IMG/VR virus record: IMGVR_UViG_2706795367_000001
Span: 32,001-96,000 of that record
Source: a virus
Lineage: Duplodnaviria; Caudoviricetes
Reading direction: 5' to 3' (one strand)
Length of the DNA: 64,000 nt
Translations under genes and position numbers: made by a program
The notes under the pieces: generated by a model
Databases searched by the model: none
What the model was told of the DNA's origin: nothing
Seen by the model: the letters and a program-made list of their open reading frames with translations, nothing else
In this document: one piece after another, positions 25,819-61,076 of the stretch
Layout: the number at the start of each line of letters is the position of its first letter
Position numbering within the stretch: the stretch's first letter is position 1

Positions 25819-25879
25819 GCGCACGGCCGGAATGGTTCGGCACGAATTCGTCAAGGTTCAAATCCTTGCGTGCGCACCA
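25819..25879 (+). ncRNA. 61-nt anticodon-less tRNA-like RNA with encoded CCA
   Basis: GCGCACG/CGTGCGC-ACCA; T-arm CAAGG-TTCAAAT-CCTTG; D-like arm; anticodon arm reduced to ACGA-AT-TCGT. Confidence 0.75.
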
Positions 25880-25880
25880 G

Positions 25881-25939
25881 TCGCGGGGAGTCGAGCCGGC
25901 TTGTTCTAGCCGAGTGTCGGTTCCTCCCCGCGATTTTTT
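25881..25939 (+). terminator. Terminator-like stem plus T6
   Basis: TCGCGGGGAG...CTCCCCGCGA-TTTTTT. Confidence 0.6.
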
Positions 25940-25965
25940 GTACCCAAAATCAGGGAGGTTCGCCC

Positions 25966-26265
25966 ATGCTCGGACGTTTCACTGAAGATCAGCAAGTTCT
26001 GCTCGCCTGCTACTGGGCGCTCTCCGACGCCCACCCGCCTCACAAGGGCGAGCTGCGAAAGATGTTCCGCAGCAAGGTGGATACCTCAACCGCGGAGCAC
26101 GCGGTGATCTCCGCCCGCCGCGCCGAGGACTTCCACATCGGCATCGCCGGGGCCCTCACCGAACTGTCCAAGGCCACCCAGAAATACCCCCGCTACGCCT
26201 TCGACCGTTTCCGTCGGGGGACGGGCGTTCCCAACCATCGCAAGGTGCGGGTCCGTGACAACTGA
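25966..26265 (+). CDS. Hypothetical protein
   Basis: GGGAGG RBS before ATG. Confidence 0.6.
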   Translation: MLGRFTEDQQVLLACYWALSDAHPPHKGELRKMFRSKVDTSTAEHAVISARRAEDFHIGIAGALTELSKATQKYPRYAFDRFRRGTGVPNHRKVRVRDN

Positions 26266-26976
26266 CCAGGCGGCGAAGATCCTTTATCTCGCCTATCACA
26301 AAGACCGCTACGCCCCGCATTGGGAATCCGCCCCGGACCAGTCGCGGTGGCGACAGACTGCCGCAGCACTCCTCCGGGAGATGAAATGATCTTCGTTGAG
26401 ATCGAATGCGACAACCCGAACTGCCCCAACGGCAGTGAGTATGTTGACGTCTACCTCGACGCGTGGCACCGGGGCGCGCCCGTAAACACCTACCTCCCCG
26501 AGGGATGGCGCGTGGCGAACGCGGTGGAGTGCCCTGATTGCGCGGGGATCGAAGAGTGAACGCGGCCGAGATAATGCAGCGCCGGATCGACCTCTACGAA
26601 CACTTGACCGATATCGATCAAGCATTGCGACTACTGGTCGGCGGGCCCATGACCCCCGGGGCCGAGGAAACGGCATTCGAACTCCTTGAGGAGAGGGACA
26701 TGGTGTGCCACCTCATGCGAGAGGTCGGCTACGAACCTTGGGATTCCCCTTTCTCCGAAGATGAAACGAAGGTCTTATGAACTACGAATACCAACTGGTG
26801 ATCGCCAAGAACGCCGCAAGGGAAACTGAGGCGTTGATCCGCAACGCCCTCGAATACCTGGCAGAGGCCCGCTCCACGGTGATCGATCACCTCTCCGCCC
26901 CCAATGACATCTACGCCCGGCTGACCATTGTTCAGGACCTCGGCCTGGTGGAAGACAATCTCCGAAAGGCTTTGAA

Positions 26977-27699
26977 ATGACCATTGATCTCGACCGCATC
27001 ACCCACCCCCTTCGCCTCGCCAAAGGATCACATCAGCCCGGCTCCGGCAAAGGCTGCGCCATGAACGTGATCTCATACATCAACGGCGACACGGTGATCA
27101 CGGATTACCCGAAGTGCTCGGCCCGCCCGCTCGCCCGCCTGGTGCAGCAGTGCAATGACGAGTTGGCCGACTCGGACGGGTTCTTGGCGCCGGAAAATAG
27201 CGTGCTGGTTTTGGATCTGGGTTGGCAGACCGTCGGAACTGCTGATGTTCCCGAGTCGGTGATGTTGCGGTGGTTGCGCGACATTCTGGTCGATCCGGTG
27301 CATGGGGTTGTGCGTCACGCTCGACCGGATGGGGTTGCGGCCATTAGCCGTGTGGCCGAGTTGTGCGCGCGGCAGGCATCAGGCGTGGAGGTTTCCGGGG
27401 CGGAGTGGCGTTCCGCCCAAGTCGCCGCCAACGCCGCCTACGCCGCCGCCAACGCCACCAACGCCGCCAACGCCGCCTACGCCGCCGCCAACGCCGCCTA
27501 CGCCGCCGGTGTCGCCGCCGCCAACGCCGCCTACGCCGCCGGTGTCGCCGCCGCCGACGCCGCCGACGCCCGAGTCGAGTTCACCCGTTGGGCCATCGCG
27601 CGATGGCGCGCCCTAGCGGGACTCGACACTCCGCGCGATATCGTCACGCAAGAGGTTGACGACGCACTCGCCCGAATCAATGCAGGTATGCCGAAATGA
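26977..27699 (+). CDS. Hypothetical protein with AANAAY low-complexity tract
   Basis: LAKGSH..GCAMN..TDYPKC family N-terminus. Confidence 0.75.
   Translation: MTIDLDRITHPLRLAKGSHQPGSGKGCAMNVISYINGDTVITDYPKCSARPLARLVQQCNDELADSDGFLAPENSVLVLDLGWQTVGTADVPESVMLRWLRDILVDPVHGVVRHARPDGVAAISRVAELCARQASGVEVSGAEWRSAQVAANAAYAAANATNAANAAYAAANAAYAAGVAAANAAYAAGVAAADAADARVEFTRWAIARWRALAGLDTPRDIVTQEVDDALARINAGMPK
27421..27570 (+). repeat. Coding tandem repeat (GCCGCCAAC/GCCGCCTAC units)
   Basis: Directly visible. Confidence 0.85.
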
Positions 27700-28031
27700 T
27701 ATCCCCGAAGATCATCGGTTCGGCCGCCGTCGTCGGCCTGCTGGCTTTAGGCGCGTGCTCCACGATGAACCATGAGACGCACACCGGCTGCACCGTCAAA
27801 GCCAAGGACATCATCCTCGACGGCGACGGTGGCGGCGGCATCACCAAAACCAAACGCTTGTCCACCACGTGCGGATCGTTCGACGTCGAGGATAACATCG
27901 CCGGCGGATTCAACTCGTGGGACATCTGGGCCTCCCTCGAGGTCGGAAAGACCTACACGATCGAGAGCGGCGGCTATCGCGTCGGCTTCTTCTCAATGTT
28001 CCCCAATGTCCTGAAAGCGACGGAAGAGTGA
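27696..28031 (+). CDS. Lipoprotein/secreted protein
   Basis: LGAC lipobox; GYRVGFFSMFPN. Confidence 0.75.
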   Translation: MISPKIIGSAAVVGLLALGACSTMNHETHTGCTVKAKDIILDGDGGGGITKTKRLSTTCGSFDVEDNIAGGFNSWDIWASLEVGKTYTIESGGYRVGFFSMFPNVLKATEE

Positions 28032-28516
28032 CTGACCGATACCCCGTTGAAGAGACGTGCGACTGCGCCTGGGGTTGCGAAAATCCCGACCATCCGAAGG
28101 GCGAGTCCAGATACTGCCCTCTGCCTGAAGATGACGGCACCATGCCGAATAATGTGGCCGAACTCGCCGGGCATGTCGTCGGACGCCGCATCGTCTCGGC
28201 ACAGAAGGAGAAAGTCCAGACCGGGCGCTGGTACGGCGAATCGGAATGCTTCGTCATCACGCTCGACGACGGCAGCCGGGTCGCCCTAGTCGATAGCGGC
28301 GACTGCTGCGCGTACACGACGCTGGAGAACTTCCTCCTCCACCCCGAGTTGGTGGATCACGTCATTACCGGCGTCGGCACCACGGGCGGATACGAGCGAT
28401 GGCACATCTACGCCGACCTTGGGGACGTGCTGGAGTTGGATGTCTCCTGGAGTCCGGGTAATCCGTTCTACTACGGTTACGGATTCGATTTCGTCGTCCT
28501 CCCGGTCGACGAATGA
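28028..28516 (+). CDS. Hypothetical protein
   Basis: DCCA motif; GTGA overlap. Confidence 0.65.
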   Translation: MTDRYPVEETCDCAWGCENPDHPKGESRYCPLPEDDGTMPNNVAELAGHVVGRRIVSAQKEKVQTGRWYGESECFVITLDDGSRVALVDSGDCCAYTTLENFLLHPELVDHVITGVGTTGGYERWHIYADLGDVLELDVSWSPGNPFYYGYGFDFVVLPVDE

Positions 28517-59500: not shown

Positions 59501-59610
59501 CGCAATGCAGGGGGATGCGCCGCGAGGCCCACTCCCAGCATCCCTATAGCTGAATATGGTAGAGTAGTTTTTACGACCAGGACCCGGTACCTCTGCCAGG
59601 CATTTCTCGG

Positions 59611-59747
59611 TCGAGGGTGTAGCTCAATAGAATAGAGCACCGTCGCATCCCCGCGTTGAGGACCGCTAAGCGGTGTGGGGACGGGACCGCGGAAGATGCC
59701 GGTAGGTGACCTCGCCAGTATGGGGCGGGCAAATCCGGCCACCCGAA
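59611..59747 (+). ncRNA. tRNA scaffold with insertions in anticodon arm and T-loop
   Basis: GGGTG-TA-GCTC..GAGC D-arm; GCCGG...CAAAT-CCGGC; CACCC. Confidence 0.55.
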
Positions 59748-59832
59748 TTTGCCCCGCATTTGCGGATGTAGGGGAAGGAACCCAGCCCAAGCTTCGGAGG
59801 TCGCTCCCGAGAAGCCTCTGGGCCGGGCTTGT

Positions 59833-59904
59833 GCGCTTGTGGTCGAATTGGAAAGACTCCTGGCTTCCACCCAGGTTATGCAGGTTCGAGTCCTGTCGAG
59901 CGCT
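59833..59904 (+). tRNA. tRNA-Gly(TCC)
   Basis: Full cloverleaf: GCGCTTG/CGAGCGC, CCTGG-CTTCCAC-CCAGG, GCAGG-TTCGAGT-CCTGT, discriminator T. Confidence 0.92.
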
Positions 59905-60272
59905 CGGAGGCTTAAGCTAACAAGCCGCCAGAAACTAAATTAGCCGATAGTTGGCAGACCTAGACGTTAAATCACCTCTGCTCGGCGTCCGCTTCCGTCG
60001 TTAACCCGAAGCCGAACTTGGTCGGAGCTTTGTGGCAGCGGGGCGATATAGCGCGCCCCAGGCCCTCCGACCGATTAAACGTCCCGCCAGATGGATGCGA
60101 GGATCGGGTCGCGCCCGGTCATTCTGGCCCCACCCCCGCCCGCCCGTTCCGGACTAAGACGCAAATACGGGTCAAGTCAGAGGGGCTGACTTCGAAGCGG
60201 CGGGACTCCAAGGGTTTCAATTTTAAGGAGGTCTTTCCATGCGTTAGGTAACTAACAATGGAAGGAGCGGTA

Positions 60273-60572
60273 ATGAGCCGCACATACAGAGATCAGAAGA
60301 AGTATCTCTACAAGCACCATCACGAGGTCTGCACCCGCAGCCATTTCTACCTGGATGATGGCTCCATGCGGTGGTGCTGGCGCGCGCACGACTGCGAATG
60401 CGCCGACTGGTGGGACTGGAGCATGAAACACTGCCCGGTCCCGAGTTGGTGGAACCGCGATATTCGTAGGGCGGAGCGCGCCTTCACCCGCAACAAGATG
60501 CAACGCGCCCGCGCCGGTCACATCGACTGGTCGGCCGTGGATGAAAAGCGCGGAGATGACTATTATTGGTGA
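60273..60572 (+). CDS. Hypothetical protein
   Basis: MSRTYR..PSWWNR..R.ER motif; AAGGAG RBS. Confidence 0.65.
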   Translation: MSRTYRDQKKYLYKHHHEVCTRSHFYLDDGSMRWCWRAHDCECADWWDWSMKHCPVPSWWNRDIRRAERAFTRNKMQRARAGHIDWSAVDEKRGDDYYW

Positions 60573-61004
60573 CTTCTACTTCATGCCCTGCGCCGCTTGC
60601 GGTGGCCGGATGCTGAGGTCCAACATGGCCGCCATCTACCCCGCCGAAGGGATGATTCACAGCCAATGCGCCAAGAGGTTCGCGGAATTGGGCTTCGGCG
60701 AGTATCTGGAGGTGAATGATGGCTGACTACTTCACCCGCGGGGGCCGGGGGCCTTTCGCCTCCTATTCGGAGGCCGCGGAGGCTGGCGCGCCCCTTCTGG
60801 ACCTCTCCACCATCAGCGAAGACGGCTCCGAGGTGATCCGCCTACTCGCCGATGATCCGGTGCTGTTCGCCATCTTCGAGCTTGGCCGGCGGCTAGGTGA
60901 AGAGGGTCTCTAGAACGGTACGCAAATCCCGAGGTGCTGCCACCTCTCCCGTTAAGTCGGTCGGATTGCGTCGGCTGGCCCCCGCCGACTGAAGTGGGGC
61001 GGTG

Positions 61005-61076
61005 TGGCCCGTAGCTCAATTGGCAGAGCAGCCGGCGGTAATTCGGCGCGTCTCGGTTCGAGTCCGGGCGGGCTAC
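61005..61076 (+). tRNA. Atypical tRNA, anticodon GTA (Tyr-like)
   Basis: TGGCCCG/CGGGCTA, GCTC/GAGC, GCCGG-CGGTAAT-TCGGC, CTCGG-TTCGAGT-CCGGG; G at position 33, short variable loop. Confidence 0.7.

Follow-up and report, generated by a model that had tools for sequence, protein, structure and literature searches.

The window analysed here is a 64,000-nucleotide (nt) stretch of DNA, positions 32,001 to 96,000 of the IMG/VR record IMGVR_UViG_2706795367_000001, from the 110,764-base-pair (bp) genome of a Cluster J mycobacteriophage (genus Omegavirus). At the two loci compared, the source phage has 97–99% identity to phages Omega, Hannaconda, and LittleE. A gap of about 370 nt between protein genes of the window encodes, on the + strand, a single-copy structured noncoding RNA of approximately 250–340 nt, the 3′ module of which (element 1) is shaped as a tRNA without an anticodon. 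According to the Hannaconda map, the RNA unit lies about 3 kilobases (kb) rightward of the repressor gene and a divergent helix-turn-helix (Cro-like) gene, within a long rightward early operon. An earlier note on this DNA had proposed four anticodon-less tRNA mimics, namely element 1 and three elements close to the tRNA-Gly gene (elements 2–4; Table 1). Element 1 answers this description fully and element 3 marginally, whereas elements 2 and 4 match no model and fold like shuffled sequences.

Table 1 Positions of the features in the window.
Feature	Positions	Strand	Basis or remark
5′ domain of the noncoding RNA (tentative; 5′ end not fixed)	25596–25682	+	71% identity to Optimus, 48% to WXIN and the metagenomic provirus
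Core: five-way junction, closing helix P1 and hairpins P2–P5	25683–25795	+	Folding, covariation
P6 hairpin (GAAA loop, 6 bp), reaching position −1 of the mimic	25803–25818	+	Invariant in Cluster J
Element 1, anticodon-less tRNA mimic: acceptor stem, D-like hairpin, vestigial anticodon arm, T arm, ACCA	25819–25879	+	Fold, shuffles, covariation
Intrinsic terminator: branched hairpin and T6	25880–25939	+	Read from sequence
Gene for 99-residue protein (phrog_6612, PHROG family of unknown function)	25966–26265	+	Downstream of the RNA in all four lineages
Element 2, unsupported as a tRNA mimic	59382–59434	+	No model match, fold z −1.9
Element 3, lineage-restricted tRNA-shaped element without anticodon arm	59435–59500	+	Model score, fold z −3.4
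Extended −10-like promoter motif TGG-TAnAnT, ahead of element 4 and tRNA-Gly	59557–59565	+	By eye; no call by the scanner
Element 4, unsupported as a tRNA mimic; in the variable leader upstream of tRNA-Gly	59611–59747	+	No model match, fold z −1.2
tRNA-Gly(UCC)	59833–59905	+	ARAGORN; Rfam 61.4 bits
tRNA-Tyr(GUA)	61005–61077	+	ARAGORN; Rfam 41.7 bits

Architecture of the noncoding RNA unit

The unit is composed of a loosely conserved 5′ domain, a five-way-junction core, the P6 hairpin, the tRNA mimic, and an intrinsic terminator, in this order. A small hairpin of the 5′ domain (25620–25637) was recognized by eye in all four lineages that carry the RNA. The core and P6 end at position 25818 and the mimic begins at 25819, and the same junction is found in phage WXIN.

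Nine core sequences, folded separately at minimum energy, adopt one common architecture. For the covariation analysis, a model built from three Omega-type sequences was used to align the cores of phages Optimus, Thibault, and WXIN and of a 117.6-kb metagenomic provirus, giving seven sequences from four lineages. In this alignment, 99.5% of the 214 cells pair, and nine pairs, distributed over P1, P2, and P3, are changed on both sides. None of 500 shuffles reaches any of the five measures applied, and slid registers are 35–48% paired; with an alignment fitted to the structure and only four independent lineages in it, these figures are supportive and do not constitute a formal test. RNAalifold, run on the core alignment, independently returned the same helices. 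The stems of P4 and P5 are invariant, and their loops alternate between GNRA-type and UNCG-type tetraloops. Several G-U pairs of the core would be A-C on the opposite strand; therefore, the RNA is encoded on the + strand.

The core and the mimic are better conserved than the flanking genes. The core is 88, 76, and 72% identical to those of Optimus, WXIN, and the metagenomic provirus, respectively, compared with 67, 51, and 55% for the next protein gene. No credible match to a family of Rfam 15 was obtained for the cores of the window, WXIN, or the metagenomic provirus at E values up to 5–10. The minimum-energy fold of the whole 284-nt unit is no better than those of shuffled sequences (z −1.0), and long-range folding is uninformative here.

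In WXIN and the metagenomic provirus, the closing stem of P6 encloses an insertion of two hairpins in place of the tetraloop. The terminator of the window is formed by a G+C-rich 11-bp stem (25880–25890 with 25924–25934) followed by six T residues; its long branched loop caused a simple terminator scanner to miss it. The stem is retained with a different sequence in Optimus-type phages, WXIN, and the metagenomic provirus. The U tract is clear in Cluster J only, and neither WXIN nor the metagenomic provirus has a clear one. In Hannaconda, an extra small gene (55890–56147) is inserted right after the terminator stem; it has removed the U tract and parted the unit from its usual downstream gene.

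The 99-residue protein encoded downstream of the RNA has 44–59% identity across the four lineages and a basic C-terminal tail. A Pfam search assigned it to no family, and Atlas returned weak leads. Its AlphaFold model has a predicted local distance difference test (pLDDT) score of 49.7 and is too poor to use. The protein is a candidate partner of the RNA unit.

The unit was found in Omegavirus-like phages alone, in 40 records of the phage collection and 6 IMG/VR contigs. An exact-pattern scan of viral contigs returned the known phages and one metagenomic provirus, pattern scans of genome and metagenome contigs returned no unit, and scans with the neighboring proteins gave no new loci. The unit represents an uncatalogued, well-supported structured RNA family, which is absent from Rfam and specific to Omega-like mycobacteriophages.

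Element 1, a tRNA look-alike without an anticodon

Element 1 is a real, conserved tRNA look-alike that lacks an anticodon. It is formed by a perfect 7-bp acceptor stem, a 6-bp hairpin at the position of the D arm with GG in its 4-nt loop, a 2–3-bp stub at the anticodon position, and a 5-bp T stem with a 7-nt T loop, and it ends in a discriminator A followed by an encoded CCA. The minimum-energy fold is a four-arm cloverleaf (z −3.1), which none of 200 shuffled sequences equals; the paired acceptor stem, collapsed arm, and ACCA end described in the earlier note are correct.

The intergenic stretch that contains element 1 is conserved in 40 of 40 Cluster J records and partly in WXIN, a phage with 21–24% genome-wide identity to Cluster J according to its authors (PMC11186097). 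The element 1 homologs were aligned with MAFFT and the alignment was left uncorrected: 95.5% of the cells are paired, and six pairs are changed on both sides. None of 500 shuffles and no slid register comes close to these values. Read in canonical tRNA geometry, all pairs of the acceptor and T stems are standard in five lineages. In the mimic of WXIN, two pairs are exchanged in the acceptor stem, two in the D-like stem, and two in the T stem, with standard pairing preserved throughout. The compensatory changes in these three stems across lineages argue against random decay; the earlier note had drawn this conclusion from the pairing of a single sequence.

The anticodon arm is the only part that varies freely. 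The canonical 5-bp stem with a 7-nt loop is missing from all the homologs, which have 2–5 bp with a 4-nt loop, or no arm, at this position: in Optimus-type phages the stem has all 5 bp and a tetraloop, with U-A in place of a C-G pair of the window, the window has its stub, and WXIN has no arm. The metagenomic provirus retains the core and an extended P6, and a hairpin of about 22 bp stands at the place of the mimic. A search with the element 1 model found no mimic at the unit locus of the provirus or elsewhere in its genome. Therefore, the core is the constant part of the unit and the 3′ module is exchangeable, as expected of an end-forming signal.

Element 1 occurs as a single copy per genome in the model searches. 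A weak match to the element 1 model on the − strand (38154–38229; 17.6 bits, E ~0.06) lies in a very G+C-rich stretch and is probably due to chance.

Rfam and ARAGORN assign none of elements 1–4 to a known family. None of them matches the tRNA family RF00005 (family score 29 bits) even at an E value of 10, and ARAGORN called solely tRNA-Gly and tRNA-Tyr. The best Rfam match of element 1 is mascRNA-menRNA (RF01684), with scores of 25.5 bits (window) and 20.7 bits (WXIN), both below the cut-off of 42.5 bits. Position 3:70 of element 1 is G-C in all lineages and not the G-U of transfer-messenger RNA (tmRNA) and tRNA-Ala. The absence of a G3:U70 pair and negative ARAGORN results with default and relaxed settings led us to reject element 1 as a tmRNA. 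It was also rejected as a Y RNA, because a search for TROVE (PF05731), to which control genomes responded, found no such gene in any part of the 110,764-bp genome. A remnant of attP was ruled out: the Cluster J attP core adjoins int and matches a tRNA-Leu gene (Omega 54,667–54,710), about 8 kb distant from element 1 (PMC3706429).

Elements 2–4 and the tRNA-Gly and tRNA-Tyr region

The proposal that the four elements make up a dispersed family fails. Only element 1 is conserved throughout the genus; element 3 occurs in no more than four phages, which are near-identical, and neither element 2 nor element 4 passes the tests of fold and model match. The three elements lie in a gap of 465 nt between a gene that ends at 59367 and tRNA-Gly. 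The gap is common to Hannaconda, Omega, and LittleE only, and its right half is also present in Pound. Rfam matches at gathering level in the window are limited to tRNA-Gly and tRNA-Tyr.

Element 3 forms a cloverleaf-like fold with an 8-bp hairpin capped by a GAGA loop and a textbook 7-nt T loop, and has one mismatch (A-C) in the acceptor stem and one in the T stem. The element 1 model scores it at 21.4 bits (E ~0.007), close to the true tRNAs (tRNA-Gly 19.3 bits, tRNA-Tyr 17.7 bits). Therefore, element 3 is tRNA-shaped without a specific relationship to element 1, and the seven bases GCGCACG with which it and element 1 both begin are no evidence of common descent; the shared start pointed out in the earlier note is real, but tRNA-Gly also starts with GCGC. 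Besides the source phage, element 3 was found in LittleE, Omega, and Hannaconda and in no others. The few substitutions among the four copies preserve the hairpin, at a divergence too low to gauge selection. BLAST identified no parent tRNA, its matches being the four close relatives and generic hits to T arms. Element 3 is probably a young or decaying tRNA-derived element, and it does not belong to the element 1 unit.

Elements 2 and 4 are matched neither by the element 1 model nor by Rfam, even at an E value of 10. The fold of element 2 is no better than those of shuffles, and the loop does not correspond to a T loop. In Omega, a deletion removes the 5′ strand of the closing (‘acceptor’) stem of element 2, and Pound lacks the element altogether. 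Element 4 starts as a convincing 5′ half of a tRNA with an acceptor strand and a D arm, and its remainder is not tRNA-like: what was taken for the T arm pairs with the bases that come after it, as one strand of an 11-bp hairpin, and the fold is unremarkable against shuffles. About 20 nt of element 4 are replaced in Omega and Pound, and the Optimus leader is unrelated and of similar length. Element 4 was rejected as an intron-containing tRNA, since ARAGORN with introns allowed found nothing at normal thresholds and junk at low ones. The −10-like motif in front of element 4 is kept in Pound and Optimus despite differing flanks; therefore, as read from the sequence, element 4 is probably part of the tRNA-Gly transcript leader, and elements 2 and 3 are upstream of that promoter. 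The most economical reading of elements 3 and 4 is that they are decayed tRNA genes. Elements 2 and 4 are best read as ordinary structured spacer around the tRNA-Gly promoter, and they lie outside the element 1 unit.

Several features of this region are of separate interest. The ~340 nt of noncoding sequence directly 3′ of tRNA-Gly (59906–60240) are near-invariant relative to Optimus and Pound and better conserved than most genes here; one hairpin in them is changed on both strands, and the stretch is possibly a structured RNA that is matured with tRNA-Gly. A sub-threshold DUF3800-IV RNA motif (60902–60983; 42.9 bits against a cut-off of 60.7, E 3e-5) ends about 20 nt upstream of tRNA-Tyr and is a second instance of a structured RNA abutting a tRNA. 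A link of this motif to DUF3800 was rejected, as the genome has no DUF3800 gene. In Optimus, an abiF RNA motif (RF03085; 39.7 bits against a cut-off of 37 bits; 1195–1230 of the compared stretch) is positioned just upstream of the extended −10 of the tRNA-Gly unit. The abiF hairpin was also seen by eye in LittleE and Pound, and the motif is absent from the source phage genome.

The RNA-repair genes that the earlier note placed alongside the mimics are present, as a Pnk/phosphatase gene (34887–35882) and an RNA ligase gene (approximately 47434–48096), but they are 9 and 22 kb away from element 1, adjoin none of the four elements, and have no specific link to element 1. The Pnk and RNA ligase of Cluster J have already been treated as a tRNA-repair pair, and the paper that describes the cluster, in which phages have one or two tRNAs each, does not mention a noncoding RNA at the element 1 gap (PMC3706429). 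Hannaconda gene 112 (13640–14341 of the compared stretch), annotated as ‘tRNA nucleotidyltransferase’, encodes a Thg1-like protein (PF04446, 104.7 bits). The source phage lacks this gene, with a gap at approximately 33781–34071 between both flanking genes, which are present. The Thg1-like family adds nucleotides to the 5′ ends of tRNAs.

Possible roles of the unit

We lean towards the hypothesis that element 1 is an RNase P and 3′-end processing handle, by analogy with MALAT1-mascRNA and the t-elements of plant mitochondria. Host RNase P would cut between A25818 and G25819, which would give the upstream RNA a defined, hairpin-protected 3′ end and free a mini-tRNA about 60 nt in length that would subsequently be trimmed or CCA-tailed at its 3′ end. 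The mimic retains the 12-bp stack of acceptor stem and T arm, the T loop, the GG-bearing D-like loop (elbow), the discriminator A, and often CCA. These are the parts read by RNase P, RNase Z, and the CCA-adding enzyme, and the decoding part alone has been lost. The role of processing tag, which the earlier note had listed as an alternative, fits element 1 because the element is placed directly after a conserved RNA and directly before a terminator, and a plain hairpin substitutes for it in one relative. The host is capable of such processing, since the tRNA-like module of Mycobacterium smegmatis YrlA is cleaved by RNase P and receives CCA (PMC4201824). We infer the cleavage of the phage transcript, and any function of either product, from the architecture and conservation of the unit.

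Several observations weigh against the processing handle. A promoter scan detected no sigma-70-type promoter upstream of the RNA, and −10-like hexamers picked there by eye are not conserved between lineages. The 3′ tail of the mimic is ACCA, ACCG, or ACTC depending on the lineage, Optimus having ACCG, so that only some of the lineages encode CCA. Bacterial RNase P usually favors an unpaired leader, and P6 reaches position −1 of the mimic. The four independent lineages limit the covariation statistics, and our literature search found no RNA-seq study of Cluster J.

The closest counterpart of the arrangement is MALAT1-mascRNA and MEN-beta (RF01684), where the 3′ end of a longer structured noncoding RNA is likewise adjoined by a tRNA-shaped element, about 60 nt long and weak in its anticodon arm. 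In the work of Wilusz et al. from 2008, RNase P reportedly cuts 5′ of the MALAT1-mascRNA element, and the small product receives CCA. The vertebrate RNA is a nuclear long noncoding RNA that a triple helix stabilizes, whereas the phage RNA has a hairpin at the putative cut site and a bacterial terminator behind it. Element 1, with 25.5 of the required 42.5 bits, is an analogue of mascRNA and not a relative. Phage T4 encodes the small stable RNAs rnaC and rnaD (species 1 and 2), which have no known function and are matured alongside tRNAs by host enzymes; unlike element 1, they are encoded within a cluster of tRNA genes, and their sequences are unrelated to it. The plant mitochondrial t-elements are tRNA-like structures located at the ends of transcripts, where they most likely act as cleavage signals for RNase P and RNase Z; they flank organelle mRNAs and have no sequence relation to element 1, whose neighbor is a structured noncoding RNA (PMC1920247). 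The RNA YrlA is likewise a non-decoding tRNA mimic with T and D arms, and such RNAs occur in some mycobacteriophages (PMC4201824). However, it is encoded beside a Ro60/TROVE gene and carries a Ro-binding stem and its tRNA-like part as an internal module, whereas the source phage has no TROVE gene and element 1 is terminal.

The freed, CCA-ending mini-tRNA could itself be the effector, acting as an abundant sponge for proteins that act on the acceptor end or elbow of tRNAs, such as MenT-type nucleotidyltransferases, toxSAS/CapRel-type pyrophosphokinases, or SmpB, so that the real tRNAs would be protected or trans-translation blocked. We consider this role unlikely. Selection on the acceptor stem, the discriminator A, and the T/D elbow, concurrent with the loss of the anticodon arm, is consistent with it, and the phage invests in tRNA repair with Pnk and RNA ligase, to which one relative adds the Thg1-like enzyme. 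A mycobacteriophage precedent exists in DS6A, which encodes a tag-less tmRNA reduced to the tRNA-like domain (TLD; ‘TLD only’) with an acceptor stem and T arm and no anticodon arm; a comparable RNA has an inhibitory effect on tmRNA that may result from titration of SmpB (PMC4131195). Element 1 differs from the tmRNA domain in the missing G3:U70, its pair at 3:70 being G-C, and in the 6-bp D-like hairpin that replaces the open D loop. The metagenomic provirus has the core RNA, yet its genome holds no mimic, the unit is present in a single copy behind no recognizable strong promoter, and the repair genes are 9–22 kb distant. We know of no toxin target in Omega-like phages. A decoy for anticodon nucleases is impossible, as an RNA without an anticodon loop cannot serve as one.

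In an extension of the sponge, the unit may be a two-part counter-defence RNA, the parts of which RNase P would separate. The mini-tRNA would then soak up SmpB or those enzymes of the host or a prophage, of MenT or toxSAS type, that attack or modify the acceptor ends of tRNAs, and the five-way-junction RNA would be a second effector, directed at a protein or polymerase target of its own. This we regard as equally unlikely; if true, a phage equipped with tRNA-repair enzymes would possess, in addition, an anti-toxin device made of RNA only.

It is also conceivable, though again improbable, that the unit acts in cis. The core would modify RNA polymerase in the manner of the put/EAR antitermination RNAs, or sense a signal, and thereby control read-through of the terminator at 25880–25939 into the downstream early genes, the first of which is the syntenic gene for the 99-residue protein. 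Within a long early operon of co-directional genes, the structured RNA is followed by the terminator and then by a ribosome-binding site with its gene, an order suggestive of such control; the downstream gene accompanies the RNA in all four lineages, and a strong terminator in the middle of an operon needs a means of passage. However, about 85 nt with two independently folded modules separate the closing helix of the core from the terminator, unlike in the expression platforms of known riboswitches, and the tRNA-shaped module is left unexplained. Furthermore, WXIN and the metagenomic provirus have no clear U tract after the hairpin, and the extra gene of Hannaconda separates the terminator stem from the syntenic gene.

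It is very unlikely that all four elements are neutral wreckage of tRNA genes with no present function. Such an origin suits elements 2–4, with their narrow distribution, indels, replaced segments, and lack of a significant fold, and phage tRNA clusters are known to turn over fast. Phages of Cluster J have one or two tRNAs (PMC3706429). Nevertheless, every stem of element 1 except for the anticodon arm is held by compensatory changes between genomes of 21–24% identity, and the position of the element is fixed relative to P6 and the terminator. Lastly, the reading of the stretch as a protein gene is refuted for practical purposes: the 2003 Omega record places the open reading frame gp110 over the element 1 gap (equivalent to 25695–25910 of the window), and this frame is open in Omega-type phages, but it is broken in Optimus-type phages, whose core and terminator differ in length by 4 and 23 nt, respectively, later annotations of related phages have dropped it and leave the gap empty, and substitutions across the stretch track base-pairing.

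The RNA unit adds an uncatalogued structured RNA family to a genus that has been described with one or two tRNAs as its only RNA genes, and it corrects the open reading frame call of Omega gp110. With its succession of structured RNA, mini-tRNA, and terminator, it is a bacterial-virus counterpart of the MALAT1-mascRNA arrangement. Since Cluster J phages and M. smegmatis are in standard laboratory use and phage deletions can be made with routine tools, the unit offers a rare case of a phage tRNA mimic and its attached RNA that are directly testable.

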